From Hadesarchaea archaeon (GTDB lineage Archaea > Hadarchaeota > Hadarchaeia > Hadarchaeales > WYZ-LMO6), in the NCBI GenBank assembly GCA_029259185.1, contig JAPDJF010000014.1, positions 2,148 to 66,147 on the forward strand: a stretch of DNA of 64,000 bases. Direction: 5' to 3'. Positions 3,698 through 41,574 of the stretch are shown here, in pieces. Within the stretch, counting starts at the first letter, position 1. Each line of letters opens with the position of its first letter. Position numbers and translations under genes: made by a program. The notes beneath the pieces are model-generated. The model ran no database searches. It had not been told where the DNA came from and saw nothing but the letters and a program-made list of their open reading frames with translations.

Positions 3698-4200
3698 GTG
3701 GTTTGCCAGGTTTTTCGTATCCGTTTCAACCCCCGGTGGGCGCATCTGGTGCCCGATGCGGATGTGGCTCCGAAAGCGACTCGGCGAGCGCAAGCTGCTG
3801 CGGGTGATCAAGCGGATAGGCAGAGCGAGCGCCGGCGAATAGACGACCTGTGCCACAAGATCTCGAGGGCGATCGTCAGCGAAGCTAAGGAGCGAAACTG
3901 GTCATCGTGATAGGAGATCTGAAGGGAATCCGCAAGCGGGCAAAGGGGTGGAGGCTCAGGCGCATCTTGCACTCGATGCCCCACCACCGGCTGTCGAGGT
4001 GCATCGAGTACAAGGCTCTCTGGGGGGGGATCCCCGCGGTGCACGCCGGCGAGGCATCCACCAGCCGAACGTGCCACTGGAAACGAAGGACGAAGGGTCT
4101 CTCAAGGCTTCTTCAAATGTCCCTCGTGTGGCCTCGAGTACAACGCCGACCTCAACGGAGCCGTAAACATAGGAAAGAGGTTCGCCGACCATTGGTTGGC
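3698..4200 (+). pseudogene. tnpB: IS200/IS605-family TnpB (OrfB) C-terminal remnant, frameshifted
   Basis: Three successive frames encode TnpB-like segments. These are HKISRAIVSEAKERNWS, then VIGDLKGIRKRAKGW.LRRILHSMPHHRLSRCIEYKA, then the Zn-ribbon FKCPSCGLEYNADLNGAVNIGKR. The N-terminal half is absent and no TnpA is present. Confidence 0.7.
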
Positions 4201-4683
4201 GGACGGGGTACTAGGGTTCGTGCCCTTGAGGGGGATCCCGAGCCCCCAAGCACGGGAATTGGCCTCAGGGGCTATTTGCGCAAAAGCCCCTTTGGCAATT
4301 CTCCACTAAGCTTTGACTAGATAGAATCCCTAGTGGGACGAATCTGGATTCGTTTGAAAACTTTGACCCCCACCTCCTTTGGGCTAATGATTCTCTGCTT
4401 TGATACGCTTATCGATGCTTTTAAATACTAAAACTCTCCCCACACTATTGGGCTCTGGAGCGAAGGTGGGGGCATGAAACGTGAGCCTGTGGCAAGCTTG
4501 GTGAGGGTGAGAGAGGATGTGATTCCTTCATCCTCGAAGTGGCGTGGGATATTGAGTCTCATTAAAACTCTGATCCAAGACCGCAGGAGAAAAGAGATCC
4601 CTGTTGGATATGCGACTTCCTGATTAGGGAAGGTACTTCTGGAAGGAGAAAAATTTATTCTTCTTCAAGCGAGGGGAATTTGA

Positions 4684-4755: not shown

Positions 4756-4956
4756 CTAAATCGGAATCTAGAGTGAAGTGCAAAATGGCTTCAAACCCAA
4801 GCTATTTCCTGCCATGACTATTTTTCCTTCTTAATAAGCCATTGATCCTTCAACACGTTTCACCTCGGGGACAAGCCCCTTCCTTTAGGGAGGGGTAGTT
4901 GACTAGCCCGTTTTCTGAGGAAAAGCCCTTGTTCCGACCATATAAAAGCGGGCCCG

Positions 4957-5229
4957 GTGGGATTCATACTCAAATGGGTTCGGGTCCCAACTCAGGGGCG
5001 TACCGTATTAATACCATTTTGGGCAGATGACCGACGGTGGGAAGCGATGCTAAACAAACAAATCGGAATACGACTGACCCCAAGGCACTACGCTCTCGTG
5101 AGGGAAGTCGCCAAGAGGCGCGGAGAGGACGTAAGCGTTTTCGTGCGACGGTCCCTCCTGCGGGAGCTGGCCGTGCTCTCCTACCTTTCAGAGGACGAGA
5201 AGAAAGCCCTGGGGGTTCTAACGAAATGA
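4957..5229 (+). CDS. ribbon-helix-helix (CopG/Arc-like) DNA-binding protein
   Basis: 90 aa. The C-terminal segment VSVFVRRSLLRELAVLSYLSEDEKKAL is typical RHH. The gene starts inside the tRNA-3'-end-like direct repeat at 4949-4965. Confidence 0.45.
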   Translation: MGFILKWVRVPTQGRTVLIPFWADDRRWEAMLNKQIGIRLTPRHYALVREVAKRRGEDVSVFVRRSLLRELAVLSYLSEDEKKALGVLTK

Positions 5230-5660: not shown

Positions 5661-5838
5661 GCAGAATTCGGCTTCTTTTCTTCCAATTTATGCAATGTGA
5701 AAGAATTCTACATGTATTTTTCTTCCATACTTCACAAATTTGCTTTCCTATACCTAAATTTGTGAAGAATTCTTCCATAGAAGAATTCTTTTCTTCCATG
5801 GAAGAATTCTACACGAATTTTGCGAGTTTTCTTCCGAA
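5661..5838. promoter_or_regulatory. operator-like repeat array upstream of the 5860 RHH gene
   Basis: Four copies of a GAAGAATTCT palindromic core (GAATTC centre). Five copies of the direct repeat TTTTCTTCCA within ~180 bp. The array lies directly upstream of the ATG at 5860. Confidence 0.45.
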
Positions 5839-5859: not shown

Positions 5860-6333
5860 ATGGGGAAGATAAAGGTAAACCACGTGATTGACGAGGAGCT
5901 CTGGAAAACCTTTAAAAAGTTCGTTTTCAGCCAAAGCGGGAAGATCCACGGTTCTTTAAGTGAGGCCGTCTCCCGGGCGCTGGCCGCCTACATGTCTTCC
6001 GGCTCGAACTCTTCCCCTGCCCACACATGCTCACACATTTCCGACCGGAAGGGGGGGAAGAAGGAAAAAACCGAGCGCATCTACCGGGAGCTCGCCGCCC
6101 ATGTGGCCCCAGGAGAAATAAGGGTGAGGAGGGAAGCCATCGAGGAGGCGATCGCGAGGGTGGTGTCGAACGATCCCCGGATGCTCCGCCAGTACCTCCA
6201 GCTACTGCAGACGCTGGGGTACATCGAGCTGGACGGGTTCGGGGTGTACAAGCTCCCCCGTGAGATCGCCCGCCTCGAAGCGGACGAAAGGCTCCGGGCG
6301 ATCCAGAAGGCAGAAGCCGCCGACGGAGCCTGA
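5860..6333 (+). CDS. CopG/RHH-like N-terminal domain protein (plasmid/virus-type regulator)
   Basis: 157 aa. The N-terminus VNHVIDEELWKTFKKFV...SLSEAVSRALAAY resembles beta-strand/helix RHH regulators. The C-terminal half is helical and uncharacterised. Confidence 0.45.
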   Translation: MGKIKVNHVIDEELWKTFKKFVFSQSGKIHGSLSEAVSRALAAYMSSGSNSSPAHTCSHISDRKGGKKEKTERIYRELAAHVAPGEIRVRREAIEEAIARVVSNDPRMLRQYLQLLQTLGYIELDGFGVYKLPREIARLEADERLRAIQKAEAADGA

Positions 6334-6892
6334 GCGTCTAGCGCATTTCCCGGGTGCTCGACTGGTATTTGCTAGGTCTTCCCCGAGTTCCGGCCTTGCG
6401 GATCCGAACCCCGCCGGACCTAGTGCCGCAACGCCTGTCCGCGATAAGCATTATTCATGTGAATATTGTTTACACCCACCGGAATGCGTGTTCAAAAAAA
6501 GGTTCTGCGGGAGGGGCTGGGGGAAAAGGATTCAATGATTACCAGTAACCAGCCGAAGAATACAAAATTTGGCGAAATCGCCAAAACTTGTAAAATCACC
6601 CCCCGCCCCACCGTTCAGCATTCTGAGATCCCGCTGGCTGGCCGAGGGGGGAGGCGATAGAAGCAATACTCACATGAGTAATGCTTCTATTCCCGATCTC
6701 CGCGTGGTCGTCCCGAAATCGGAGTACGGGCGTATCTGCGAGCGCGCGAAGGCTGGCCGAGGGGGAAAGCGATATAAGCAATATTCACATGAATAATGCT
6801 TATATCTATATCCGAAAAGATAAGCAATGTTCACATGAACAGTACTTATAAATTACATCCGAAAAAGGTAACAATATCTGAGCCAGCGGGCG

Positions 6893-7093
6893 GTGGGCAA
6901 AAAATTACAACTTTTACTCAAATTGGTAAAAGTTGTAAAATCCGGATCCGAGCCGATAGAGGAGATCGCCCAGAAACTCGGTCTAGACCTCACGCTGGCC
7001 TGGGCGATGAGACTCGACGGCTTGGACGACCTGTCCCGGCTGAGGCTCTTGAGCGAGGGGGAGGCGGAAGCTCGGCGGGATACACAAAACTGA
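6893..7093 (+). CDS. hypothetical small protein, possible HTH
   Basis: 66-aa ORF between the palindrome copies. Segment IEEIAQKLGLDLTLAWAMRL is HTH-like. Weak call. Confidence 0.2.
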   Translation: MGKKLQLLLKLVKVVKSGSEPIEEIAQKLGLDLTLAWAMRLDGLDDLSRLRLLSEGEAEARRDTQN

Positions 7094-7289
7094 GCTTCCC
7101 AAAATTTTGGGGAAGCTGAAAACCAATTCGGCTTACGTCTAAGGCCTTGGCTATCTCCTCCTGTGTCCCCTTCAAGCCCCTTTCCTGAAGGGGTTATTTC
7201 CGTTTCTCCCCACCCCGGCGGAACTATTCTCCGCCTTCGACTCCCTAGGACAGTCCCACCGAGATTTAAAGCCCCGATTCAAGCTTGAA

Positions 7290-7472
7290 GTGGTGAACGT
7301 CGAACCGGTGATAGGGAGGGAGGTCGAGATAACCTATGCTGACGGGACAAAAAAGCGCAGGGGCAGGCTCCTGAGGGCCCCTTGCGGGTACTTCAAGCTC
7401 CTGAGCCACCACCGCACCTACCTCATCGAACAAAAATCCGTAACCGAGCTGAAGTTTTTAAAGCGCTCTTAG
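7290..7472 (+). CDS. hypothetical small protein
   Basis: 60-aa ORF (MVNVEPVIGREVEITYADGTKKRRGRLL...). No motif recognised. Confidence 0.25.
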   Translation: MVNVEPVIGREVEITYADGTKKRRGRLLRAPCGYFKLLSHHRTYLIEQKSVTELKFLKRS

Positions 7473-7890
7473 ACCCACTCTTCGTTTGCTCAGGCCGCCG
7501 GGGGGAAGGCGATAGAAGCAATATTCACATGAATAATGCTTCTATCCCCGACCTTCGCGTGGTCGTCCCGAGATCTGCGAGCGCGCGAAGGCTGGCCGAG
7601 GGGGAAGACGATGGAAGCAATACTCACATGAGTAATGCTTCCATGCCCCCTTGGTGGTGATAGGGTCTTGGGGGTGGGGGGAGTTCGGTCGGGAACTTGA
7701 GGAGCGCATCCGAGCCGGATTCATCCATATAAGTAGAAAAAGAAAACTGACCGACGAGGATCGAATTGCCATTCTAGACTCATTTTTAGCGGGAAGGGGG
7801 AAGGATTTTTGATCCAAATTTTGCACGCGTAATTTGGATAGGACAGTTCTACTCCCTTTTTAAAATGGTGATCAAAAACATTCTGAGCAC

Positions 7891-9339
7891 ATGACCGATG
7901 ACTCAAGTCCCCCTCCAACCCCCTCGGAGAGGACAAAAAACGGGAATGGCGAGAAAAGTGGCATAGAGTACTTTTCCGGAGGTTCTGCGCGGGTTCCAAG
8001 GACTACCCCCGAGGCTTCCGAAGTGGCTCCAGGGGGATATACCTGCCCTGTGTGCGGGAAGAGGTTCGACCGCCTCGACCAACTGCGAGGGCACGCCGGG
8101 CGGGCCCATAGGAAACGCGTTCGGATATCCGAGGACGGCGGCATAACGCTCTTAGAACCCCGGCACGGGGGGAGGGGGGAGCTCGGTGGGTGTATCGGTA
8201 GCAGCGGGGCGCCATCGGATCTCTGGAAGCGCCCGAAGTCGGCAACTGAGGTTTTACGAGAAGTCCTGGAGGATCACGGGCTAAGGCCTGACTTCGTAGA
8301 ATACGCTTCGAAGCGCTCGGAGCGGATGGGAGGGCTGCACCCCAACGAGCTCTGGAGCCTGCTGACCGACATGGACTCGGGGGTCAAAACGAAGGCCCAC
8401 GCGCGCTACGTTGTCGACGACTACTACTTCGCCCTGCAGCAGGAGCAGGCCAAAGCTAGGGAGGCGGGTGCGCGCGCGTCCTACCCCCTGCGGATGGGGG
8501 AGGCCGAACCCTTGCCCTTTTACTCTTCCTTCCATGAGCAAACCCCGTACCCCACCTACGAGGCCCTCCCGGTGAGGAAGCAGCCCTACGAGCCCTACCC
8601 CAGAAGGGATTACGGGAGGGCCCCAACGCGAGAGGAGGTGAGGGAATGGATAACCCAAGCCCTCGAGGAGAAGCGAAAGCGCGACGAGCTCTCGGAACTC
8701 AAGGAGAAGATAGCATCGCTCGAGTCCTCGCTTCGCGCGCAGGCGCCCTCCACCGGCCTGACCCGGGAGGAGCTCCAGCAGGCCCTGGAGGCGCACCGTC
8801 GGGATGAGGAAGCCAGGCTGATGCGCGAGCGCTTGGAGATGGAGCGCGAGCTTCGAAAAGTCGAGCGGGAGGAGCTCCTGAAGCGCGTGGAGGACCTCGC
8901 GAAGCGGGTGGAGGAGGGCCGGAGCGTCCACATCCCCCCTGCCCAATATTCGGACTCCAAGATCCAGTTCGCCGATACCATAGCTAGAGGGCTGATTCCC
9001 GAGCTGGGGAGGCGCATGCCCGTCAAGTGGGTGATCGAGGCCATCCCCACGCTGACCGGGGAGCAGAGGAGCCCCCCGCCCATAGCACCTCCAAGCGGGA
9101 AATACAAGATCGAGGACTTCGTGTCGCCCGAGTACGTGGTGGAGAATTGCCCTAACTGCGGGGCCGAAGTCACCATGAGAGACCACGCGTGCCCGAGGTG
9201 TGGCGTCCCCCTGCCACGACATCCCTCCCCACGCGTAACCGGTGCAGAGCCTATAACCCCCGTTGTCAAGGAATTGCGAGGGGAGGAACGGGTGAAGCTG
9301 GTGAGGAAAGAGGAGGGCCTTTCGAAACACCCGATATGA
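7891..9339 (+). CDS. zinc-finger / coiled-coil protein, unknown function
   Basis: 482 aa. N-terminal C2H2-like finger (YTCPVCGKRFDRLDQLRGHAGRAH). Long charged coiled-coil in the middle (ELSELKEKIASLESSLRAQ...RERLEMERELRKVEREELLKRVEDL). C-terminal zinc ribbon (CPNCGAEV...CPRCG). Confidence 0.5.
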   Translation: MTDDSSPPPTPSERTKNGNGEKSGIEYFSGGSARVPRTTPEASEVAPGGYTCPVCGKRFDRLDQLRGHAGRAHRKRVRISEDGGITLLEPRHGGRGELGGCIGSSGAPSDLWKRPKSATEVLREVLEDHGLRPDFVEYASKRSERMGGLHPNELWSLLTDMDSGVKTKAHARYVVDDYYFALQQEQAKAREAGARASYPLRMGEAEPLPFYSSFHEQTPYPTYEALPVRKQPYEPYPRRDYGRAPTREEVREWITQALEEKRKRDELSELKEKIASLESSLRAQAPSTGLTREELQQALEAHRRDEEARLMRERLEMERELRKVEREELLKRVEDLAKRVEEGRSVHIPPAQYSDSKIQFADTIARGLIPELGRRMPVKWVIEAIPTLTGEQRSPPPIAPPSGKYKIEDFVSPEYVVENCPNCGAEVTMRDHACPRCGVPLPRHPSPRVTGAEPITPVVKELRGEERVKLVRKEEGLSKHPI

Positions 9340-11377: not shown

Positions 11378-11496
11378 GTTTGCACTCTTAGTTTTAGACT
11401 TAGTACAAGTACCTTAAAAATGTTTGTTAGGTTAACCGAAAAATTTAAAAGGGATGTGTTTTAATGCTTTAGGAATGCCTAAAAAGGAGTTGACGC

Positions 11497-23789: not shown

Positions 23790-25178
23790 TCAACCATCGA
23801 TTTCATATTTTCCCCTTTCAATCGGGATCACAACCTCGGTTTCCAATTTCTTCAGGAATGGGACGAACATCTGCGGCTGCTCGGTGTGTATGGGGAAGAA
23901 CTTTTTGGGCCGGAGCCTCTCAACGATCTCGTAGATATCCTCCGGCCTGGCGTGGCCCGGGGTGTGTATCCTGTACAGTGGGATCCCGTAGACCGAAAGC
24001 CAGTTCTTCAGCCTCCTCTCGTCGAGCTCCATCTCCTCCTCGAATGGCTCCGTCTGGGACAGGATGTAAATGCTCCCGGGGGGCGGATCCAAGTACCTGA
24101 TCGGGGTCACTTCCCATGAATCCAGGAAAAGACAGCTTTCTGCCCTGCTCCTCAAGCCCGCCGAATCCACGAATATCTCGCTCCCGTAGCGCTGATCGAG
24201 CACCCTGGCCCTCTTGTTGGAGGGGTGGTAAGGCAGCTCCCTCAGGAAGACTCGGACTTCTTGACTTCTTGTCCCCACTTTGGGTACCCTTCCCAGTTTC
24301 GGATCGTCCTCCACGGACATCAGGGCTATCGCTATCGGGGGAGCCACGACCATCTCCTTGCCGAGCTCATTTGAAATCTCCCAGAACATCCTTATCCTGT
24401 CTATATCGTTCGTGGCGGTGCTGGCTATAACGAGACCGCCCCTGCATGCGGACTCGATCGCTCGAATCGTGTAGTCTTTGACTTCAGCTTCCGTGATGGG
24501 AACACCTCCCCCATCGATGTGCGTGCCCTCGCAGATCATCGCTTGAACCGGCTCGTCCAGCCTTTCCAGTCCGCGGATTAGAGACTCCGTGTAATCCGAA
24601 ACCACACCATGTCTCCTGAAGTCTCCCGTGTAAAGGACGATCCCACTGGACGTTTTCAGCACGAAGGCATACGAGCTAGGGACGCTGTGATCGACGTGGT
24701 GAGGCAAAACGTCGAGCCCTTCCCCGAAGTTCAAAACCTGGCCGGTTCTGAACGTTCGATATCGACCCTTGCTTTTCTCCTGGTATTCCTTTACCGCAAG
24801 GTTTTGCTTGGCCTTGGAGCTCATCGAGCCGTCGTACAGCCTGAATGCGGTTTCGCCCACAAAAACCGGAATGTCCTCTCTGATAAGGGCCGTTGCCCCG
24901 ATGTGGTCGGTGTGGGGATGGGAGACGAGTATCGCGTCGCACAATTTCTCTTTAGTTCTATCGTACATCTCTGGGATGTTTGGACTCAATCCTATGGACG
25001 TGTACTCTTCGATGGAATATCTCGGGGCATCCGTGGGGAAAGAATAGAACTCTTTGAATTTGCTCAGGCACAGCCCGAAGTCCAAAAATATCCTAGCCTT
25101 GCAATCCAAATCGTCCAGCAAAACCGCATTTCCACCTATCGTATTGACTCCACCATAGAAAGTCAGTCTCGCCGACAT
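23790..25178 (-). CDS. metallo-beta-lactamase / beta-CASP ribonuclease (archaeal RNase J-like)
   Basis: 462 aa. Motif VSHPHTDHIGA (HxHxDH). The beta-CASP acidic and His motifs occur downstream. The size matches aRNase J. Confidence 0.8.
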   Translation of the reverse strand: MSARLTFYGGVNTIGGNAVLLDDLDCKARIFLDFGLCLSKFKEFYSFPTDAPRYSIEEYTSIGLSPNIPEMYDRTKEKLCDAILVSHPHTDHIGATALIREDIPVFVGETAFRLYDGSMSSKAKQNLAVKEYQEKSKGRYRTFRTGQVLNFGEGLDVLPHHVDHSVPSSYAFVLKTSSGIVLYTGDFRRHGVVSDYTESLIRGLERLDEPVQAMICEGTHIDGGGVPITEAEVKDYTIRAIESACRGGLVIASTATNDIDRIRMFWEISNELGKEMVVAPPIAIALMSVEDDPKLGRVPKVGTRSQEVRVFLRELPYHPSNKRARVLDQRYGSEIFVDSAGLRSRAESCLFLDSWEVTPIRYLDPPPGSIYILSQTEPFEEEMELDERRLKNWLSVYGIPLYRIHTPGHARPEDIYEIVERLRPKKFFPIHTEQPQMFVPFLKKLETEVVIPIERGKYEIDG

Positions 25179-25445
25179 CGTCTCATTAGTTACTCAACAG
25201 CCCTCCTAATTTATCCTGCTGGCGGTGTCACCGTAGCGTTCAGCATTCAGAGCTATTCAGAGGCCACCACCGGATGTGAACTGACGAGGGCTGCTGGCAC
25301 GCGCTTAGCACGTTTAAATTGGGGGCTCAGGTGGCGCGTGGCTAAAGGGGGCAACTGGATCGGATTTTTCCACCCGAGACCGGCGGTGAGAGAGCGGGAG
25401 AACTCCGAAGCCGGTGATCCCCAATATCACTAGTAAAGAACGAAT

Positions 25446-26069
25446 TTATATCACTTCAACAACCCTTTCTTTGTAAAAATTGCACAGTCGCGAGAGCGGG
25501 CACTCCCCGCACCTCGGTTCGGGCCCGCACACGAGGGCAGCGAAGTCGAGCAGGGCTTCATTGTATTCGGGTCCACTACCTCTAGGAACTAAGTCACTTG
25601 CGAGCTTCAAGAGTGCTTCGTCTCTAGAAGGTGGTCGCCTGCCTTGTAACCCGAAGACCCTCCTGAGGACACGTGCCACATTCACATCAACTATTGATAC
25701 ATCCCTCCGAAATCCAAAGCAGAGGATCGCGTTCGCCGTGTAACTACCTACGCCAGGCAACTTCGTGAGTTCGTCTTGCCGGTCGGGCACATGTCCGCCA
25801 TATTCTTTAACCATTCTTGTCGCAAGTTCGATGAGCCACTGCGCCCTTTTTTGGAGACCCAATGGTGTGAGGAGCTTCCGCAACTCTTTCACGTTTGCGG
25901 ATGCCAAGTGCGTGACGGTGGGGTACTCTTTCAAGAATGATGGATAAAACTCCGCTACCCGCTCGGCGGGTGTACGCTGAAGCAAAATCTCTGCGAGCAG
26001 GACTCGATACGGATCGGTGGACACCCTCCAAGGGAAAGTTCTCCCGTGCTTTCGCCGCCAATCTAACAA
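25446..26069 (-). CDS. nth: endonuclease III / HhH-GPD base-excision glycosylase with 4Fe-4S loop
   Basis: 207 aa. HhH segment LTKLPGVGSYTANAIL. Catalytic-Asp region IVDVNVARVLRRV. C-terminal CGPEPRCGECPLSRLC cluster. Confidence 0.85.
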   Translation of the reverse strand: MLDWRRKHGRTFPWRVSTDPYRVLLAEILLQRTPAERVAEFYPSFLKEYPTVTHLASANVKELRKLLTPLGLQKRAQWLIELATRMVKEYGGHVPDRQDELTKLPGVGSYTANAILCFGFRRDVSIVDVNVARVLRRVFGLQGRRPPSRDEALLKLASDLVPRGSGPEYNEALLDFAALVCGPEPRCGECPLSRLCNFYKERVVEVI

Positions 26070-26091
26070 CGACCGTACGAAGCTCGTCGAT

Positions 26092-28101
26092 TTATTCGGC
26101 AGTTAGACCCCTTCGCTTTTCCATCTCTTCTTCAGCCACGCGAACCGCAAGACGAAATAAGTAGCCGCGGAAGTCTTCTCGGTACAGTCTTACCGTGTCC
26201 TTGACGAACTCGTGGGCGCGGCAGAGAGCCCAAGGAAGTATCGGCCTTGCGCCCGTTTTAAGGGTTTCTGTGTATATGTCGAGAGTTCGAGGGTCCGCTA
26301 GAGCCGTCAGAACCCTCCCCACATACTCCCTTTCTTTCTCGACCAAGTCTGAACTCTCCAGAAGTCTATAGGGAAGGAGTATCTCGTACCGCGGCAGTGC
26401 CGTGCTCTCCGTGGGTAAGTCCTCTAGGGTTAGCCGACCACCCTTTACACCACAGTAGAAGCTCAAAACGGCGGCCCTTGCACAGAGGAGAGCGTACAGC
26501 TCGGGATCTGGTTCTTCTATCAGCTCCTTTTTTTCCTCAATGCGTTTTTCGATAAAGCTAATCCACTGGTCTTCTTTAGTTACCCCTTCCTCCTCCGCTT
26601 GGCGCCTTAACTCGGGCTCCATCATGTAAGAGAAACGGCGCACGAAGCGACATGTACAAACGATCTCGCCCGACGAAAGGTCGGGCGACAAACCCTCAAA
26701 GAGTCTCAAAACAGTCCCCTGATCAGATAGGCGGAAGTGGAATATCAAATCGGGGTCCATATCGGGCCAGATAGGCGACCTCCCTTCCATTCCCGATCCG
26801 AACCGGAGGTACCAAAAAACTAGGGGGGCAATAAATTCAACCCCAGCTCTTTTTACCGTCCCGCAGTAAAGAACGCGGTCGGAGAAATTAACGTCCTTGA
26901 CGAGTTCGCTGAAGGCTCTGAGACTGTTTCTAACCATTTGGCCGTGTATTCTAGGTTGGGTGTAGTCCGAAAAGAGATGCTCTAGCGGGAAAATCCTTCC
27001 GTCTCTGAACACCACATCGGGCCGGCGCCGGCCCCCCCCGTTCAGGGCCTCGTGGTCTTTAAGGTACTGACGGACATTTAGGGCCGCACTCAAAGTTCGC
27101 TCCCATAGCCTTGGATCGGCCAGTTGAAGGTACGCGCTAGGTGGGACTAGGATCCCCTGATCGATGGCTTCTTCAGATGTGTATGTCACCCATGTGCTCG
27201 GCGACGGTTTTGCGTCGACATCCTCTATTTCACTTGTATACAAGTTGTAGTATATGGCAACGGCTGCCAGAATCGCCATCGGGTGGCGCTCAAATTTTTT
27301 AGGCAGGATATCCCCCAACGAGAAAATTTGGAGAGAAGCGTCCGTACCCACTTCAGTGTACGGTTCCTCCAGTTGACCGACTTTAAACCTCTCTAAAAAA
27401 CTTCTTCCGAGCACTACTTGTTTTAAGTGCTTATCGACGATGTCCGGGTCAAAGTGGGCCTCGTCGCTGAGGGTTCGGGGTTTAAACTTTAACTGGAGAC
27501 CTTTTCGTGGCACCCCAAGTTGGCGCGCGAAAACCGAGTCGGCGACATTGTCGATATCCCATACTTTCCTCCCCATCTCTTCCACCCTTTTCTTATCCCC
27601 TGCTTTCTTCGCATTCTTAAGACGATCCACGCAAGCCTTGTGTTCTTCGTAGAGCCATTTAGCAAACTGCAGAAGAAGTTTACGCGGATCCTCAGCCTCG
27701 AGCCGCCGAGCCGCTTCCCGGAAGTATTTTTTGAGCTCGCGGGAGTCGATGTCAACGAGTTCTTTCCTAACGATATCCAATATCAGCCGATTCCCCTTCT
27801 CGAACTCCTCCCTCTCCACCTCCACTCTGAATAGGTCTTTAGGCTCCCCTAGCCAACGGGTCAGCGGGATGGCCGCAAGATGGTAGAGTATCTCAGGGGG
27901 GTTCGACCAATCGTCTTTAATTACGAGACCCCTGCTCACCATGCGTTCGATCGCTTTCCTCACATTCTGGTATGTCGTGCCCAGCTTCGCCGCGATCTGT
28001 GAAATCGTCCCCCTTCCGCCCAAGTCCTCAAGTGCTCGAGATATTCGCGCCTCCAGACCCTTGCCTGCTTGAACCCGTCTCTGTCCAACCATCACAACCA
28101 C
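26092..28101 (-). CDS. large wHTH-containing protein of unknown function, translationally coupled to the HerA-like ATPase
   Basis: 669 aa. N-terminal winged helix (GTISQIAAKLGTTYQNVRKAIERMVSRGLV). The central segment VVFRDGRIFPLEHL resembles the Asp motif of RNase-H-fold nucleases (NurA/PIWI RDG-like), but this is not established. A 10-nt overlap with the upstream ATPase gene indicates translational coupling. Confidence 0.55.
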   Translation of the reverse strand: MVVMVGQRRVQAGKGLEARISRALEDLGGRGTISQIAAKLGTTYQNVRKAIERMVSRGLVIKDDWSNPPEILYHLAAIPLTRWLGEPKDLFRVEVEREEFEKGNRLILDIVRKELVDIDSRELKKYFREAARRLEAEDPRKLLLQFAKWLYEEHKACVDRLKNAKKAGDKKRVEEMGRKVWDIDNVADSVFARQLGVPRKGLQLKFKPRTLSDEAHFDPDIVDKHLKQVVLGRSFLERFKVGQLEEPYTEVGTDASLQIFSLGDILPKKFERHPMAILAAVAIYYNLYTSEIEDVDAKPSPSTWVTYTSEEAIDQGILVPPSAYLQLADPRLWERTLSAALNVRQYLKDHEALNGGGRRRPDVVFRDGRIFPLEHLFSDYTQPRIHGQMVRNSLRAFSELVKDVNFSDRVLYCGTVKRAGVEFIAPLVFWYLRFGSGMEGRSPIWPDMDPDLIFHFRLSDQGTVLRLFEGLSPDLSSGEIVCTCRFVRRFSYMMEPELRRQAEEEGVTKEDQWISFIEKRIEEKKELIEEPDPELYALLCARAAVLSFYCGVKGGRLTLEDLPTESTALPRYEILLPYRLLESSDLVEKEREYVGRVLTALADPRTLDIYTETLKTGARPILPWALCRAHEFVKDTVRLYREDFRGYLFRLAVRVAEEEMEKRRGLTAE

Positions 28102-29666
28102 TTTTCCAGTCCCTCGCTCTCCCCCCTCGGCGGGCCTGCGATTTCCTCCTTCGGTTCGCCAGCCTCGCGTGGGGTTGGTTGAGTTCTAGGTTTCCACTTT
28201 TGGACCTCTGTAACAATATCTGGTGTGGCTCCGCCATGCTTCGTTTCGCGCCCCCTCACTCTGATGGGGACGGCGTGGCGCACCGTCTCTCTGCTTCCGG
28301 TAAGCAAACATGTGCCCTGCTCGAATTTGGGTAGCCGTCCTACCAAGTCACGGGGCGCGTCTGCGAAGACTCCTCTGAGAGAATCGAGCTGGTCTGGCTC
28401 CAAGGCGAAGATGAATCGGGTGTTAGTCACGCGAATCACGCGCTGGTCGATGTCCGTCGGAGAGGGGGTGACCAAAATTAAGCAGACACCGTAGTGGCGA
28501 CCGAACCTGATAGTCTCGCGCAGGACGGTCGAAGAGGGCGTGTCTCCGCTCGAGGGCAAGAACATGTGGGCCTCGTCTATCGAGAGCACCAGTGGGGGTA
28601 TGCGGTTGCGCATCCTCAGGCTTAAAAGTTCTCTAGCGATGGCTGCCGCCACGGCGTGTAATTCGCTGTGACCGAGACCCCGGCAATCTATGTTAACGAG
28701 GGCCTTGGGCCTCAAGAGGGAGGGCCAATCGACTCCTTTTCCGATAACGTGAACGTGCCTTAACGCGCTAGCGCGGTCGGAGGCGATGCTGATGGTGTCT
28801 CGTCGAGCGTTGAACTCGGCACCCACTTTTGGGATTTCGTTCACAAGATCGTCGACATCGAAGTCTCCTCGCTTCTTCAGATTTAAGAAGGCTCGTCGTA
28901 CGAGTTGTTCCTGCAGTTCGGTGAGCCAAGGAATCATGCCTATCACTTCGGGCTCGGCGAGGGACGAAAGGCGAATGGTGAGAGTCTTCCCTGGAGTCAG
29001 GTTAATACCGTTTAGCTCTTCCGTCGCCTCTACGGCTTCGCCGTGAATGTCGAGGTTAACTTGGGGTACTCCCAGCGAGACTAGCTCCTCAGCCAAAACG
29101 CCGCGGAGCCAAGATTTCCCGGTACCCGTGGTTCCCACGATGAGGATGTGCCGAGGAAGCACCTCCTTCGGGTTTAGGGATATAGGCAAGTTAGCGCCCC
29201 CCACCAACGTCCCTACACTGAGACCCTTACTAGGACTGACTAAACCAAGAACGTGTGCCACCGTATCTGGTGTAGCCCGATACACGGGCGATCCCGCCGG
29301 AACTAACGTCTGTGGCTCTCTGAGGTTCCAAGAATCTCCTTGCCGAACTAGTTCCTCGAGCAAATCTAGCATAACGAGTCGGAATCTTCGTGGGAGATCC
29401 TCTCGCACGCTCGGACTTTCGAGCCTGAGTAGCTCCCTCATGTGGGAGAGTTCGGCTGCCTCGTATGGGTTAACCTCGCGTCCCCAGACAACCCTGCCAA
29501 CGCTAAGTGAGACACCCTCCTCCCCGACGGCGACGAGCAACTCTCCAGGTCGGGCGAGCTTCCCCGGTCGGAGGGCAACAAGTAAGGATGAAAAAGAGGG
29601 GGTACTCTCATCTGCGACTACCGTTCCCACCCGCTCCGTTAAGTGGGCGAATGACATTCCTCTCAC
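28092..29666 (-). CDS. HerA/FtsK-like (DUF87-type) P-loop ATPase
   Basis: 524 aa. Walker A ILIVGTTGTGKSWL and Walker B LVLSIDEAHMFL. The N-terminal beta-barrel-like region matches the HerA/DUF87 layout. Confidence 0.75.
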   Translation of the reverse strand: MRGMSFAHLTERVGTVVADESTPSFSSLLVALRPGKLARPGELLVAVGEEGVSLSVGRVVWGREVNPYEAAELSHMRELLRLESPSVREDLPRRFRLVMLDLLEELVRQGDSWNLREPQTLVPAGSPVYRATPDTVAHVLGLVSPSKGLSVGTLVGGANLPISLNPKEVLPRHILIVGTTGTGKSWLRGVLAEELVSLGVPQVNLDIHGEAVEATEELNGINLTPGKTLTIRLSSLAEPEVIGMIPWLTELQEQLVRRAFLNLKKRGDFDVDDLVNEIPKVGAEFNARRDTISIASDRASALRHVHVIGKGVDWPSLLRPKALVNIDCRGLGHSELHAVAAAIARELLSLRMRNRIPPLVLSIDEAHMFLPSSGDTPSSTVLRETIRFGRHYGVCLILVTPSPTDIDQRVIRVTNTRFIFALEPDQLDSLRGVFADAPRDLVGRLPKFEQGTCLLTGSRETVRHAVPIRVRGRETKHGGATPDIVTEVQKWKPRTQPTPREAGEPKEEIAGPPRGESEGLEKWL

Positions 29667-29689
29667 GTTAAGGTTGTTGGAGGGTATAT

Positions 29690-30757
29690 TTAAACCTTAC
29701 CTTTTAACAGTTTCATGATACTTTTCGCCAAGGCCTGGGCCAGCGCCACCGGCATGGCGTTCCCTATCTGTCTCGCTACGGACTGAGCCGTGCCTTCGAA
29801 GACAAACGAGTCGGGGAAGGTTTGGAGCCGCGCGGCCTCTCTGGGTGTGATGGCCCTGTCTTGCTCGGGGTGGATGAATCGCCCGCAACTGGGAGCGTTG
29901 AAGCGAGACGTAATCGTGGGAGACGGAGAATTCCAAGACATCCGGCCGTACACGTTCTCCGCGCCCTTATCGAGCCTACGGTGGCACCGGAGCCACAAGT
30001 AACGAGGTAAGCTCCTCCTGCTCCCCCCGTCCCTAGGGACACGACGGACGGTCTCTAAGACACGGGCGGAGTGGTTCGTCGCCACATGGTTGGGTATTGT
30101 GGGGTGAACTTCTCCCGCGTGCAGGGGGGGCAGGTCTCCTATAGCGTCTCTCACGGTTCGCCACTTGGGAAGGGCGAGTTTCCCAGCGCATGTCGGATTC
30201 GCGTGAGTTGGTGGGGGGAGCCAGACCGACTTGACGGTTCTGTCGACCGAGAGCACTATCAGTCTCTTGCGGAACTGGGGGACGCCGTAGTCGGCGGCCT
30301 CTAAGCACCCCCAAGTGGACCGGTAACCCAGTCGTGCCAGTTTTCCCATGTAAAGTGCAAGGTACTGTCTTGTCTTCCGGTGGATCATCCCCGACACGTT
30401 CTCGAAGAGGACGGCCTTGGGCCTGATCTCGCCGACGAGTCGCAAGAGAGTGCGAACCAGACCGTTCCTCGGATCTCGCGCGTACTTAGGTCGAGTCCTC
30501 CGCAGGCTACTGAACCCCTGACAAGGCGGACACCCCACGACGATGTCGATCTCGCCGCGTCGCGCTCCAGCCGCGGTGAGGATGTCGTCGCCACCGATCC
30601 TCCTCGCGTCGGAGCAAATTGGATCGACACCTAGGTTCCGTTTAAACGTGGCGCAGGCGGAGGGATCATTGTCCACGGCCGCCACCACACGGAAGCCCGC
30701 GCGCTCGAGGCCGAGGGACGCGCCGCCGCAACCGCTGAATATGTCGACCGCCAACAT
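29690..30757 (-). CDS. dcm: DNA (cytosine-5)-methyltransferase
   Basis: Motif I VDIFSGCGGASLG. Motif IV GCPPCQGFS. Motif VI AVLFENV. Motif VIII QFRKRLIVL. Motif X GNAMPVALAQAL. The start was moved to the internal ATG (MLAVDIFSG...) because the track begins at a TTG. Confidence 0.9.
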   Translation of the reverse strand: MLAVDIFSGCGGASLGLERAGFRVVAAVDNDPSACATFKRNLGVDPICSDARRIGGDDILTAAGARRGEIDIVVGCPPCQGFSSLRRTRPKYARDPRNGLVRTLLRLVGEIRPKAVLFENVSGMIHRKTRQYLALYMGKLARLGYRSTWGCLEAADYGVPQFRKRLIVLSVDRTVKSVWLPPPTHANPTCAGKLALPKWRTVRDAIGDLPPLHAGEVHPTIPNHVATNHSARVLETVRRVPRDGGSRRSLPRYLWLRCHRRLDKGAENVYGRMSWNSPSPTITSRFNAPSCGRFIHPEQDRAITPREAARLQTFPDSFVFEGTAQSVARQIGNAMPVALAQALAKSIMKLLKGKV

Positions 30758-30760
30758 CTC

Positions 30761-30792
30761 TGACGTCAATTATGACGTCAAAAGTATAAATA
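30761..30792. promoter_or_regulatory. twin TGACGTCA palindromes plus shared TATA element between divergent genes
   Basis: TGACGTCA-ATTA-TGACGTCA lies at 30761-30780. It is followed by TATAAATA at 30785-30792, about 25 bp upstream of the 30807 ATG. On the other strand TTTATA lies about 27 bp upstream of the dcm ATG. Confidence 0.5.
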
Positions 30793-30806
30793 GCTTTGGT
30801 TCCAAA

Positions 30807-30968
30807 ATGGATGCGATGCCGCGATTGGAAAAGCCGAGAGCAATCCAGATTACGATTCGAGATAGGAGGACGGGGAAGAGCAAATCACGGACGGTGTACG
30901 ACACAACACTCGACGAGGTGTACAAGACTATAGAGCGTGTCTTCGGTGGGAAGGGGAGAGTTCGCTAG
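30807..30968 (+). CDS. 53-aa small protein in the divergent control region
   Basis: MDAMPRLEKPRAIQITIRDRRTGKSKSRTVYDTTLDEVYKTIERVFGGKGRVR. Good TATA spacing and non-repetitive composition. Confidence 0.4.
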   Translation: MDAMPRLEKPRAIQITIRDRRTGKSKSRTVYDTTLDEVYKTIERVFGGKGRVR

Positions 30969-31376
30969 TTTCCCTGCTGGATTTCTTAATGGGGTTCGAT
31001 GATCCCGCGGGAGGGTCTGGAAACGAACCCGAAAGGACGGCAGTACTTGAACTACTCGTACTCGGTGAGGACACCTGAGGGGGAACTGAAATAGGTGGTG
31101 TAACGACACTATAGTGGATGGTGTCCGAAAGCAACGCCCAAATCATCTAGCCGCTCTGAAGAAATTCTGCGAATTCTGTGGAAAAATCCAAGTCAAACTT
31201 CCTCCCATTTACACTTCTTCCCCAATTCAACCCCTAAAGTCATTAAGGCTCATAGGGAGAAAACGGGATTCTCTTCCTTTCCCGCTGAAATTTAAATCAG
31301 TAAAAAAATCAAAAATACTTTTCAACCCCCTCGCAAATTTAATTGACATGGTTTTGGCGGGTGTTGGAGGTCGGGC

Positions 31377-34300
31377 ATGAGATTCGATACCGCTTTTTGG
31401 GTGGATCGGTTCAGGGATCTCGGATATCCCTTGAGACATTTGGGTTTGGATGTCGGGTACCTCAGGGGGCAGGGGATCCTGCCTCGCGAACTCGAGGTGT
31501 CCTCGGCCAAGCTCCTCTACAGGGACGACTACGTCGAGGTGGTCGTCCTGGAGCTCGAGCGTCTCGCCCCCAGGGGCCTGTGCAGTCGCGTCGCGAGGGG
31601 GTGGAAGGGCAGGAGGCTCCGCAGGCCGCTCCTGGTCTTCACGGACGGCGTCGACAGCTACGCGGTGATCGTCCCAGGTCCCGGCGTCGGGGGCGAGGTC
31701 AAGGCCCTTAGGCTCCACGGCGAGCTCTACAGGACGGACAGGGAGGTTCTGGAGTCGCTGAGGTTCCCGGGAGACCCGGAGAAGCTGAGGGAGGCCTACG
31801 ACGCCGTCTTCTTCCCCTACGAGAAGGTCAGGGACGAGTTCTTCCAGGGGTACAGGGCACTGTTCGAGCGGATAATCGACTCCGTCAAGAAGCTGCTCGG
31901 GCAGGACGCCCAGTCGTACGCGCAGCGCTTCCTCGGCAGGCTGATGTTCCTGTACTTCCTCCAGAGGAAGGGTTGGCTGAAGGGCGACAGGAAGTTCATC
32001 GATAAGATCGGCGACTTCCGGGAGCTCAATAGGTTGTTCTACGAGAGCCTGAATAAGGAGGACGGCGAGGAGGGGCTGCCGTTTTTGAACGGTTCGCTCT
32101 TCGAGAGGGAGCCGTACATGACCGACAAGATGGAGGCCGGGCTCTTTCCGGTGATGGACCCCATATTCAAGGAGGCTCGGGAGTTCTTCAACCGGTACAA
32201 CTTCACGGTCGACGAGACGTCTCCCATGGAGGTCGAGGTGAGCATAGACCCCCTCCTGCTGGGGACCGTGCTGGAGAACATGCTGCCCGAGCACGAGAGG
32301 GGTGAGCGGGGCACCTTCTACACCCCGGTGGACGAGATAGGATTCATGTGCAGGAGGGCCATCTCGGTTTACCTTGGACTGGGGGACAGGGTGGAAGCCA
32401 AATCGGACAGAGGCACGGAATTCGTGGACGGCCTGTCGGAGTTCGTCGAGCGGCTGAAGCGAGAAAAGAGTGAAGAAAAAGTGAGGGAGTTCAAGGAGAA
32501 ACTGCTCTCACTGAGAGTTCTCGATCCAGCGGTTGGTTCGGGTGGCTTCCTCGTGGTCATGATGCAAACGCTTGTTCAGCTGATTCATGAGGCCGAGGGG
32601 GCGGTCGGGTGGAAGACCGACCCGGAAGAACTCAAAAGGAGAATACTTCCGAACCTCTTCGGGTTTGACATCGAACCTGAGGCCGTCGAGATAGCGAGGC
32701 TCAGGCTGTGGCTTTCCCTCATCATCGACCAGAAGTATCCTCTCCCCCTCCCCAACCTCGACATGAACATCATGGAGATCCACGACGCACTATCAAGGAA
32801 GTGGGGGTACACCACCAAGCTCGACGAGTTAGAGCATCAGGCAAGTCTCAGGGACAAGTTGGAATGGCTCAGGGAAAAGTACCTCACCGAACACGATCCG
32901 AGGAAGAGACAACACCTCCGAAAAGAGATCAATGAGTTGCAGGAGGTGCTGATGGGGAAGATTGATCCGAAAGGAATTCAAATCGAGTTTTACCTCCCAG
33001 AAAGAGCTGCAGATATCGTAGTTATGAACCCGCCCTACGTGAGGCAGGAGAAAGTACCTCTAAAGAAGAAACAGCAGTACATCAACGACTACAGGCTCGA
33101 TAGAACATCCGACTTGTATGCTTACTTTATGGTGAGATCGCTTGAACTCCTTAAGGAGAATGGGGTAGCGGCGATCATTTCGTCCGACAAGTGGCTTGAG
33201 ACGAACTATGGGAGGACGCTCCAAAAGAGGCTCAAGCCCCACTTGGTTGCGGTCTACGGACAACGTCACAGAAGTTTTACGGCGGATGTGAACACCGTAA
33301 TAACCGTCCTAACGAAGAAGCGACGCGACGCAAAAGAGCCTGTGCAGTTCGTCTACTTGGAGTCGTACACAGAGGGTGTTGTCAGGAACTACAAGGCCAT
33401 CAAGAGAGGAGAGCTGACGCCAGGCAAGTGGTACTACTTGAGAGCTCCAAAGATATTCGAAGAGGTTCTCCTGCCAAAGCTAACCCATAGACTAGAGGAG
33501 TTCGCCGAGATAAAGCGGGGTTTCACTACTGGTGCCAACGAGTTCTTCTACCTCAAGGACGTGAGTCACCTCTACGAGGCCGACAGACTGGCGAACCCCA
33601 AGAAGTTCCGGGAGTGGGGGGTAACCGCTAAGAACGAAGGAGCGCTGAGGAGGCAGGGGCTCATCTACGTGGAAAATGAGGGAGGGGAGAGGTTCCTCTT
33701 GGAGAGGGATGCTGTGAGACCGATTCTTAGATCTCCGAGACAGATCCGGAGCTACGGGGTGGAGGAACCCGAGACCCTCTGTTTCTGGGTTCGAGGAAGA
33801 CCAGGGCCCTTCGCCTCTCGCTACATCGAATGGGGGAGGAGGAAGGGATTCTATAAAAGACCAACGTGCAGGGCCAGGGATCCTTGGTACTCCCTCCACG
33901 AGTTCCAGGAGGCCAAGATTTTCCCACCAATGTCTTGGGGAGATGTCATGTACATTTCCTACAGCCCGGAGCCCTACGTTTGTGACGCTCGTTTGTACGG
34001 GCTTTATCCCAAGAAGCCGGGACTTGAGAACACGTTGGCCTGCTACCTGAACTCCACGCTTTTCTTTCTCACTGTTGAACTCTACTGCAGAAGACTGGGT
34101 GGGGGGGCAACTGATATTAAGGTTGAGGACTACGAGCAGATGCCAGTTCCTGACCTAGCAAAAACTAGGATTGATTTTGATTTCTCCAAGTTTGCTAGAG
34201 AACCGTTGAAGTACATGAAGGAAGTGGAGCAGGCGGACAGAAAGGAACTGGACAGGGCTGTGCTTAGGGCGATGGGTTTCAAGGAGAAAGAGCTGGAGGG

Positions 34301-34403
34301 CCTCGTGGACGAGCTTCACCGCGCCTTCGTGGAGGTCGTGGAGGACAGACTGATAAAAGCCGGCAGGCCACTCAAGCAGGGAGAGGAGGCTGCGGAGGAA
34401 TGA
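31377..34403 (+). CDS. large N6-adenine DNA methyltransferase (type IIG/III Mod / PglX-like, gamma-class)
   Basis: 1008 aa. Motif I VLDPAVGSGGFL at about aa 385. Motif IV VVMNPPYV at about aa 555. Long N-terminal (~380 aa) and C-terminal (~450 aa) regions of unknown function. Confidence 0.85.
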   Translation: MRFDTAFWVDRFRDLGYPLRHLGLDVGYLRGQGILPRELEVSSAKLLYRDDYVEVVVLELERLAPRGLCSRVARGWKGRRLRRPLLVFTDGVDSYAVIVPGPGVGGEVKALRLHGELYRTDREVLESLRFPGDPEKLREAYDAVFFPYEKVRDEFFQGYRALFERIIDSVKKLLGQDAQSYAQRFLGRLMFLYFLQRKGWLKGDRKFIDKIGDFRELNRLFYESLNKEDGEEGLPFLNGSLFEREPYMTDKMEAGLFPVMDPIFKEAREFFNRYNFTVDETSPMEVEVSIDPLLLGTVLENMLPEHERGERGTFYTPVDEIGFMCRRAISVYLGLGDRVEAKSDRGTEFVDGLSEFVERLKREKSEEKVREFKEKLLSLRVLDPAVGSGGFLVVMMQTLVQLIHEAEGAVGWKTDPEELKRRILPNLFGFDIEPEAVEIARLRLWLSLIIDQKYPLPLPNLDMNIMEIHDALSRKWGYTTKLDELEHQASLRDKLEWLREKYLTEHDPRKRQHLRKEINELQEVLMGKIDPKGIQIEFYLPERAADIVVMNPPYVRQEKVPLKKKQQYINDYRLDRTSDLYAYFMVRSLELLKENGVAAIISSDKWLETNYGRTLQKRLKPHLVAVYGQRHRSFTADVNTVITVLTKKRRDAKEPVQFVYLESYTEGVVRNYKAIKRGELTPGKWYYLRAPKIFEEVLLPKLTHRLEEFAEIKRGFTTGANEFFYLKDVSHLYEADRLANPKKFREWGVTAKNEGALRRQGLIYVENEGGERFLLERDAVRPILRSPRQIRSYGVEEPETLCFWVRGRPGPFASRYIEWGRRKGFYKRPTCRARDPWYSLHEFQEAKIFPPMSWGDVMYISYSPEPYVCDARLYGLYPKKPGLENTLACYLNSTLFFLTVELYCRRLGGGATDIKVEDYEQMPVPDLAKTRIDFDFSKFAREPLKYMKEVEQADRKELDRAVLRAMGFKEKELEGLVDELHRAFVEVVEDRLIKAGRPLKQGEEAAEE

Positions 34404-38683: not shown

Positions 38684-38700
38684 CAAACTAATTAGTTTGT
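38682..38700. terminator. perfect 18-bp palindrome ACAAACTAATTAGTTTGT in an AT-rich spacer
   Basis: Lies immediately after the 37487-38683 ORF stop, in an A/T-rich tract. Hairpin terminator or operator candidate. Confidence 0.3.
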
Positions 38701-39203
38701 TAAGTTTCTTTAAATTCCTGATGAAACAGTTTTCATACAAATTTTTGAAAAAATTAAATTTGAACACTGGAGCGGATAGCAGTCCGGATTCATTTCCCTG
38801 AATCCAGAAGGGGCGGGTTTCTCCTCCACGAATATCCCCACCCCGATGGACCCTTCTCCCGCGAGGTGCTCAACCGCTTGATCGAACGCCACGCGGGGGT
38901 CCAAACCCACCCTCCTCAGCTACCGGAAGCAAATGCTGGTGTGGGGGCTCATCGAGGGGGCCTCGCACGGAGGGGTCAGATGGGTAAACGGACGGTGAGT
39001 ATCGTCTTGGAGGACGAGCGCGTCTGGGAGGGCTTCTGCAGGCTTGTGGAGGCGAAATACGGCCGGAAGTGGAAGTTCTTGGGGAGGGGCGCGTTGGTCG
39101 CGTGGGATTTGAACCCCACAGTCTTGGCTTTCGCTTGAGGAGCGATTTTATCGTTTTTACCAATTTTAGCAAATCCGATAATTTCCCAGTTGGACCGCCC
39201 GTA

Positions 39204-39757: not shown

Positions 39758-39877
39758 GCCTTCCCCCCGTATCCAAAAAATGTGCAATTTACCAAGATTG
39801 GTAAAATTCACACTACTTGTAGTAAAAGAATAAATCCGGAAGAGTATAACATGACTCAATTGTTTATTGCTAAATTC

Positions 39878-39925
39878 TAATTCTATCCCTTTTAGAAAAC
39901 TAATTCTATCCCTTTTAGAAAAAGT
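39878..39925. repeat. tandem duplication of 24 bp (CTAATTCTATCCCTTTTAGAAAA x2)
   Basis: Exact direct tandem repeat in an AT-rich region. Confidence 0.6.
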
Positions 39926-41556: not shown

Positions 41557-41574
41557 TCGAACCCAAAATGGTAC

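Follow-up and report, generated by a model that had tools for sequence, protein, structure and literature searches.

The control regions of plasmids and temperate viruses (repeat origins, sopC/parC-type centromeres, lambda OL/OR) contain clustered, non-identical imperfect palindromes in non-coding DNA, which lie beside genes for small DNA-binding proteins and an integrase, form two mirror sets flanking a regulatory module, and have AT-rich stretches alongside. The same traits were found in two palindrome arrays, A and B, of an integrated element in a 64,000-nt stretch of DNA from a Hadesarchaea archaeon (assembly GCA_029259185.1, contig JAPDJF010000014.1, positions 2,148 to 66,147 of the forward strand; hereafter the window, with coordinates counted from its first nucleotide). 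We tentatively favour the view that these arrays are orientation-specific, hairpin-forming, cis-acting sites of the element backbone, serving its maintenance or control. In contrast to the known control regions, the arrays are irregularly spaced, their 26-34-bp palindromes show compensatory changes that a protein site alone does not need, a conserved GC-rich core of 66-82 nt stands between palindromes, and no Rep, ParA or ParM partner was recognised. As regards parC/sopC-type centromeres in particular, neither ParA nor ParM could be identified among the scanned open reading frames (ORFs) of the element, only genes for small ribbon-helix-helix (RHH)-like proteins.

In archaeal origin recognition boxes (ORBs) the G-run follows the dyad. 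The arrays share with ORBs the combination of a dyad and a G-run, repeated copies, and one inverted pair (copies A1 and A2) flanking a 190-nt segment. However, the array dyad is twice as long, its G-run precedes the dyad along the G-rich strand, unlike the G-string of ORBs (PMC3528665), and the only orc1/cdc6 gene (49324-50535), which would be expected close by in an ORB-type oriC, lies outside the element, 10 kb away. This gene is located 8 kb beyond the element boundary and no ORB-type repeats are evident flanking it; a host origin near cdc6 was considered and dropped, as no ORB-like repeats were found. Palindrome-associated transposable elements (PATEs), which derive from IS200/IS605 and are described in haloarchaea, resemble the array units in having two near-terminal direct palindromes, no inverted terminal repeats or target duplication, a non-coding length, and a core that is lost through recombination between the two palindromes (PMC3119063). 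Unlike PATEs, the array copies are confined to two paralogous loci, with the units embedded in a larger duplicated segment, and no IS605-type transposon with matching palindromes was found in the window. Neither do the arrays behave as repetitive extragenic palindromes (REP) or bacterial interspersed mosaic elements: there are no copies outside the arrays, and no Y1 transposase of the REP-associated (RAYT) kind was seen among the ORFs scanned against Pfam. Finally, the attC sites of integrons are likewise structure-conserved imperfect palindromes with conserved unpaired positions, a fixed orientation and an adjacent tyrosine recombinase gene, and the modules between such sites also vary among relatives. 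The arrays differ from attC sites in lacking R''/R' boxes (RYYYAAC ... GTTRRRY) and in having segments between sites that are mostly too short for genes; moreover, the integrase encoded here is tRNA-targeting with a demonstrated attachment site, and no attI or cassette promoter is evident. The arrays lack at least one defining feature of each compared family that could be tested.

The palindromes, imperfect and 26-34 bp long, number 12 in the window, six per array, as determined with a looser scan and with a covariance model (R1) built from the palindrome copies. A search with the consensus AAGCAATAYTCACATGARTAATGCTT, allowing at most three mismatches, gave 9 matches against 0.00 expected from 100 shuffles. 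The six copies that an earlier reading of the same DNA (the first-pass annotation) had listed for array A were all recovered at their positions, with 26-nt cores at 6446-6471 (inverted with respect to the others), 6661-6686, 6776-6801, 6822-6847, 7516-7541 and 7615-7640. Array A extends over 6444-7644; array B occupies 39199-39756 on the opposite strand, in mirror orientation, and its 26-nt cores span 39203-39752 by the looser scan. No copy was found outside these two clusters in the window, whether by consensus, looser scan or R1. Start-to-start spacings range irregularly from 40 to 740 nt, and the copies are non-identical. Irregular spacing, differing repeats and long 'spacers' that are copies of one and the same core agree with the first-pass opinion that this is not a CRISPR array. 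The layout is as follows.

6444-6474 (- strand): palindrome A1, the only reversed copy in array A; a degenerate core remnant follows at 6376-6397
6561-6592 (strand unassigned): AT-rich hairpin TTTGGCGAAATCGCCAAA, then a TTGTAAAATC box
6657-6690 (+ strand): palindrome A2, X type, with the G-rich leader GGCCGAGGGGGGAGGCGAT ahead
6691-6771 (+ strand): GC-rich core, long form, including the 16-nt AATCGGAGTACGGGCG segment
6772-6805 (+ strand): palindrome A3, X type
6820-6850 (+ strand): palindrome A4, Y type, degenerate, with CCGAAAAG ahead
6905-6940 (strand unassigned): AT-rich hairpin AT2 (ACAACTTTTAC...GTAAAAGTTGT) with a TTGTAAAATC box
7512-7545 (+ strand): palindrome A5, X type
7546-7610 (+ strand): GC-rich core, short form
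7611-7644 (+ strand): palindrome A6, X type
39140-39175 (- strand): AT-rich hairpin AT1
39199-39232 (- strand): palindrome B1, Y type, centre ACCCACATGGGT
39241-39274 (- strand): palindrome B2, X type, centre CACGTG
39275-39339 (- strand): GC-rich core of array B, short form
39340-39373 (- strand): palindrome B3, X type
39620-39653 (- strand): palindrome B4, Y type
39662-39691 (- strand): palindrome B5, centre CACGTG, one arm with a 1-nt deletion
39723-39756 (- strand): palindrome B6, X type
39783-39950: AT-rich block of 28% GC, holding hairpin AT3 plus a tandem repeat, between array B and the integrase gene

All palindromes are built on a 13+13-nt dyad, which is mostly lengthened by 4-5 flanking pairs to about 34 nt, with outer arms of the form (A/G)TAAGC...GCTTA(C/T). 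The symmetry axis lies between the C and the A of CAC-ATG, which leaves a 4-nt ACAT hairpin loop. The E-box resemblance that had been read into this centre is merely that of a dyad centre, and carries no information. Single strands of the palindromes fold into a stem of 15-16 bp that has one A·A mismatch and is closed by the ACAT loop; for single-stranded DNA the folding energies range from -9.9 to -13.6 kcal/mol (z = -4.8 to -7.7). For covariation, 15 copies were aligned, i.e. the 12 from the window and three from a related metagenome contig, L007. In this alignment 89.7% of the cells are paired, and in 6 of the 15 pairs both partners have changed (25 cells). Covariation scores 0.323, compared to 0.172 +/- 0.021 for shuffled alignments, with none of 500 shuffles reaching the observed value; control structures slid by 1-3 columns score 0.056-0.132. 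The arms are held complementary through compensatory changes, well beyond chance, as the first-pass annotation had proposed from array A. The A·A stem mismatch is kept in 13 of 15 copies, and so is the ACAT loop. Cells with G·T and with A·C are nearly equal in number (6 vs 4), hence the palindromes show no preference for a one-strand RNA over DNA.

Orientation is conserved as well. R1 scores each of the listed palindromes 8-39 bits better on one strand than on the other, and within each array all palindromes share the same orientation, with A1 as the sole exception. Two types of modules could be distinguished: in X modules the palindrome is preceded by the G-rich leader GGCCGAGGGGGAAGGCGAT, and in Y modules by CCGAAAAG. 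Degenerate copies occur too, namely A4 and B5, to which the core remnant beside A1 may be added. Half-sites are not enriched elsewhere, contrary to a role as dispersed operators.

Composite units, consisting of two X palindromes around a GC-rich core, are present in three copies, two in array A (around the cores at 6691-6771 and 7546-7610, both recognised earlier) and a third in array B. Their shape, about 130-160 bp with a palindrome at either end, led to the initial description of the units as having the shape of MITEs (miniature transposable elements of the inverted-repeat kind), with inverted ends. The bracketing palindromes are direct copies of each other, however: in the array A units their 26-nt cores are 0.92 identical in direct and 0.77 in inverted orientation, and the array B unit gives 0.81 both ways. 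Nor could target-site duplications be detected, the longest direct repeat flanking the three units or the array A superunit being 3-4 nt when a slack of +/-6 nt was allowed. No cognate transposase and no autonomous transposon with such ends was found in the 64-kb window, and the copies are not dispersed but belong to two paralogous loci of one element, which makes a MITE origin very improbable.

A derivation from non-autonomous IS200/IS605-type relatives of the PATE or REP kind, with hairpins on the same strand, accumulated in the non-coding DNA of the element, would account for the direct palindromes, the absence of target-site duplications and the conserved stem mismatch. It also agrees with the published description of PATEs, including core deletions mediated by the repeats (PMC3119063), of which the difference between the window and a second related contig, L019 (see below), would be an example, either as a deletion or as an insertion. 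Furthermore, the 146-nt unit at 7503-7648 is a 90% inverted copy of 39237-39382 and has sharp ends in two different contexts, and a tnpB remnant is located in the same window. On the other hand, the segment 6648-6942 is collinear with 39382-39144 over about 300 nt, sequence outside the units included. This sharing of neighbours fits a segmental duplication rather than the insertion of discrete 130-bp elements. Copies are found nowhere else in the 64 kb or at other loci of the same species, with a single metagenome contig matching, no Y1 transposase was seen among the window ORFs scanned against Pfam, and the hairpin that accompanies the tnpB remnant is unrelated. We therefore regard a PATE-like relic as distinctly unlikely.

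The GC-rich core exists in a long form (unit 1 of array A, and L007) and a short form (unit 2 of array A, and array B), which differ by the 16-nt indel. Its identity is about 98-100%, both among paralogues and from one organism to another, whatever the reading frame, implying that it is not coding. The ORFs predicted over the units had been dismissed earlier as artefacts, and rightly so: the 16-nt indel shifts the frame while its flanks remain identical, B2 has CACGTG at its centre and so lacks the ATG, and the peptide has no Pfam match. The core peptide matches the neighbouring RHH gene weakly (32% over 34 amino acids, E = 0.22); the idea that the core is a coding remnant of an RHH gene or of tnpB is unsupported, the peptide being without Pfam match. 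The core alone has no structure and folds no better than shuffles (z = +1.3), and its pattern was not matched in viral contigs.

AT-rich hairpins constitute a second family that accompanies the arrays, followed by TTGTAAAAT-like boxes. AT2 is 92% identical to positions 5517-5566 of L019, with a compensatory change of C:G to T:A between array A and that contig. AT1 pairs better on the array-forward strand, as its odd pairs are G·U there and A·C on the opposite strand. In addition, the array B module has an AT-rich block (22-31% GC) on either side, at 38650-38800 and 39800-39950; the 28% GC block by the integrase gene holds a perfect 23-bp x2 tandem repeat (CTAATTCTATCCCTTTTAGAAAA, 39877-39922).

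These features raise the possibility that the arrays encode small non-coding RNAs, in which the core would be the functional part, the hairpins would provide stability or processing, and the TTGTAAAAT boxes, some 55-70 nt upstream, would act as promoters. The nucleotides of the core are conserved regardless of frame while the hairpins vary only in a compensatory manner, hairpin orientation is consistent, a TTGTAAAAT or TTTTTAAAG box is found upstream of every composite unit, and the G·U pairing of AT1 occurs on the forward strand alone. Several observations point the other way. A search of the whole window and of both arrays against Rfam returned only tRNAs at threshold, with sub-threshold matches at chance level, so no RNA family was matched. 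The palindromes show the balance of G·U and A·C cells mentioned above (6 vs 4), the core by itself is unstructured, and as an antisense guide it finds no complementary target of more than 14 nt in the window. A long-range closing stem in array A, which was also considered, is absent from array B, and the promoters were assigned by eye only. An RNA is unlikely on this evidence, albeit the weightiest of the rival explanations, followed by functionless recombining duplications, a PATE-like relic, and lastly MITEs.

The arrays are part of an integrated element that can be delimited exactly. Its boundaries and integration functions are as follows.

4949-4965 (+ strand): left copy of the 17-nt attachment repeat GGGCCCGGTGGGATTC, at the left junction; exact repeat of 41574-41590
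40177-41520 (- strand): tyrosine integrase, 447 amino acids (phrog_1 integrase, E = 1.3e-5)
41574-41590 (+ strand): 17-nt attachment repeat, right copy, forming the 3' end of the tRNA-like gene
41578-41712 (- strand): tRNA-like gene interrupted by two insertions, as read from the sequence; acceptor GGGCCCG/CGGGCCC, D-arm GCTCAGTCTGGTGGAGC, T-arm GTGGGTTCGAATCCCAC

Strain L026, from another sample, represents the empty site: window positions 4965 and 41574 directly adjoin each other there, with just one GGGCCCGGTGGGATTC present, as the 17-nt repeat had led to expect. The order in L026 is ribosomal and RpoD genes, tRNA-Cys, the single 17-mer and the tRNA-like gene. The empty site and the 17-nt repeat together define 4966-41573 as a 36.6-kb insertion with a classical attachment-site structure. 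This segment is an integrated element that has the tRNA-like gene's 3' end as its insertion site and encodes a tyrosine integrase, and it shows what characterises tRNA-integrating elements: the tRNA 3' end is directly repeated at either junction, the integrase gene is adjacent, and a relative has an empty site. The integrase gene adjoins the tRNA-like gene. In the latter, the first insertion directly follows position 9 and the second falls within the anticodon region, with acceptor stem, D-arm and T-arm intact; neither ARAGORN nor Rfam called the gene at 41578-41712, and brute-force splicing was not decisive as to its anticodon identity. The integrase has 3694 homologues, and the best 120 of the 3694 are 55-71% identical to it, some being named site-specific integrase and some having PF00589. 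No match of the protein was found in plasmid and phage collections, nor in a scan of viral contigs.

A second strain-variable point lies at 42220-42224, 500 bp past the tRNA-like gene (L020 5936-10789; L026 7484-7533). At this point an AT-rich element, which holds an HNH gene and encodes a protein-primed family B DNA polymerase (PF03175), is present in the strain without the 36.6-kb element.

Counted inward from the left junction, array A begins after 1478 nt; array B stops 1817 nt short of the right junction, between a gene for a 52-residue protein and the integrase gene. From this geometry it follows that on the excised circle a distance of 3.3 kb would separate the arrays, which as inverted repeats would bracket the integrase gene, the attachment site and the RHH genes.

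Relatives of the arrays are rare. Pattern scans for the palindromes yielded nothing related from 185,579 species-representative genomes or from viral contigs, and a single related contig, L007, from metagenomes; the remaining matches in the genome, viral and metagenome collections were chance perfect palindromes in bacteria. The repeat family described initially is real, with its 12 copies, and these form two clusters only. Array A DNA had no match in plasmid and phage collections, no copies were found in the empty-site strain L026, and no comparable palindrome arrays were seen at four loci with integrases of the same family (L012, L013, L028, L030). L007 shares the 52-residue gene and the array flank at 92.5% identity, and continues with an array-A-like series (Y, Y, X, long core) and a truncated palindrome end beside unrelated DNA. 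L019, found via the 52-residue protein, shares 38657-39102 at 98% identity and carries an additional 165 nt, in which the AT2 hairpin of array A is found. The 421 nt from between B1 and B4 are missing in L019, which results in a hybrid palindrome; both an insertion and a repeat-mediated deletion fit this difference. On its cargo side L019 has type III-A csm genes, in place of the restriction-modification and Snf2-PLD genes of the window. The block made up of the 52-residue gene, a tRNA fragment, an AT hairpin and the array is 92-98% identical in L007 and L019, and since it is kept beside differing cargo it can be considered as element backbone. The arrays themselves are remodelled between relatives by recombination at the palindromes.

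Such remodelling could mean that the arrays are decaying local duplications without function, in which symmetry is kept only by template-switch correction and recombination. Module content varies among the window, L007 and L019, the hybrid palindrome of L019 and the truncated one of L007 look like products of such a process, and degenerate copies are present (A4, B5, the A1 remnant). However, organisms with 92% identity in the flanks show about 98-100% in the core, the block is retained beside different cargo, and template switching would remove the A·A mismatch, which persists in 13 of the 15 copies. Functionless decay is likewise unlikely, somewhat more so than an RNA. A further idea, suggested by the comparison with attC, is that the arrays would form a new type of structure-specific platform for recombination or exchange within integrative defence islands of archaea, with hairpin sites that are read in a single orientation, and where modules, perhaps cargo, might be swapped by the adjacent integrase or another enzyme. 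Alternatively, as the arrays meet only in the excised circle, they might sense whether the element is integrated or excised. Either role seems improbable to us.

The small-protein genes and the conservation of the block bring us back to cis-acting sites of the element. Each array has small RHH or RHH-like genes next to it, the palindromes occur within the arrays only, their orientation, mismatch and loop are kept, and the backbone block is conserved. We propose that the hairpins would have to form in a defined orientation, be it in a cruciform or on a single exposed strand, and that the small RHH-type proteins of the element itself probably bind the arrays. The binding of the palindromes by neighbouring RHH proteins, already suggested by the first-pass annotation, is a reasonable prediction. 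The arrays could then function in maintenance of the excised circle, as a replication start or in segregation, or else as an excision or regulatory switch. Several points weigh against this proposal. No replication, partition (ParA/ParM) or relaxase gene was recognised among the scanned ORFs of the element. The site of a dimeric protein would by itself not need compensatory changes, so that protein binding would be an addition to what the hairpins suggest, and template switching within quasi-palindromes could keep symmetry without selection. The model leaves the core, which is GC-rich, unstructured and unlike a promoter, unexplained; the arrays are 1.5-2.7 kb from the attachment site, too far for classical arm-type sites; and the related contigs number only two, both short.

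The genes next to the arrays are listed below.

5047-5229 (+ strand): small RHH gene, 60 amino acids, just inside the left junction (Pfam NikA-like E = 1.2e-5, RHH_1 E = 0.035; phrog_4113 E = 2.6e-5)
5860-6333 (+ strand): orf157, directly upstream of array A; RHH-like N-terminus and winged-helix-like C-terminus by sequence pattern and a low-confidence model
7891-9339 (+ strand): orf482, the first gene past array A; C2H2 zinc finger, coiled coil, zinc ribbon
38980-39138 (+ strand): small RHH-like gene, 52 amino acids, abutting array B; block kept in L007 and L019
39100-39125 (- strand): 3' fragment of a tRNA, T-arm GGGGTTCAAATCCCAC, fused to the end of the 52-residue ORF; read directly from the nucleotides

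The gene order ahead of array A is the 60-residue RHH gene, orf190 and orf157. A database search for relatives of orf157 returned only orf157 itself, and the scan of viral contigs was empty. Its AlphaFold2 model (predicted local distance difference test score, pLDDT, of 47) has two helices followed by three helices and two strands, at a confidence too low for a fold search. The 52-residue protein has no Pfam match, and its assignment as RHH follows from the strand-helix pattern only. The tRNA fragment at 39100-39125 belongs to a different tRNA (T-arm GGGTTCAAATCCC) and supplies the last codons of the 52-residue ORF. Its counterpart in L019 (5574-5600) corresponds to positions 43-63 of the tRNA model (15.8 bits, E = 1.7); there the ORF has another ending, with 165 more nt ahead of the tRNA fragment. 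The fragment may be a relic of another attachment site.

Within array A, a putative 60-residue ORF at 7290-7472, between the composite units, has an SH3-/Sm-like strand pattern and a weak match to the C-terminal SH3 domain of RimP (E = 0.18), and a likewise putative 66-residue ORF at 6893-7093 was called by one annotation. Logan short-read contigs of the same organism stop inside cores or palindromes (6763, 7577, 39322, 39617), indicating that the repeats break short-read assemblies, and the copy number of the arrays may be under- or mis-assembled. A separate palindrome and tandem family (TTCTTCCATGGAAGAATTCT, with a 21-bp x2 tandem) occupies 5685-5830, directly upstream of orf157, where the assembly of L010 breaks; this repeat region looks like an operator or promoter region. 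Outside the element, the tnpB remnant (about 3740-4200, + strand) is a frameshifted IS605-type C-terminus with a Cas12f1-like TNB domain (E = 1.4e-5), and the hairpin downstream of it, CGAATCTGGATTCG, is located at 4341-4354.

Among the cargo genes of the element are those for FeoAB together with a DtxR-type repressor, for a type IIG restriction-modification enzyme together with an HKD-Snf2 helicase, for a C5 methylase and for a HerA-type ATPase; many further genes have no recognisable family. The name given to a FeoB cluster at 90% identity or more makes Hadarchaeota the probable lineage of the uncultured host. The region 23790-38683 resembles a defence island: it contains the type IIG system with the HKD-Snf2 helicase, the C5 cytosine methylase, and the HerA-type ATPase with a 669-residue partner, and also encodes a nuclease-like protein of metallo-beta-lactamase fold and an HhH-GPD glycosylase. 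Between the divergent feoA genes, by the DtxR-type repressor gene, a palindrome (TTGTTAGGTTAACC, 11424-11443) was found that is unrelated to those of the arrays and is likely an iron-repressor operator.

To our knowledge, the mobile elements of Hadarchaeota and of related uncultured archaea are almost unknown. The present element is delimited to the base by its empty site, and besides the integrase and the small RHH genes the hairpin arrays are its only recognisable backbone. What appears to be new here are cis-repeat regions of a mobile element, from an unexplored archaeal lineage, with unusually clear compensatory evolution. The arrays combine this clear compensatory evolution in DNA palindromes with a core conserved independently of frame, and as such are a well-defined target for work on binding and transcripts. 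If they indeed represent an origin, a segregation site or an excision switch, they would offer a handle for the construction of vectors, and for the recognition of related elements with other defence cargo.

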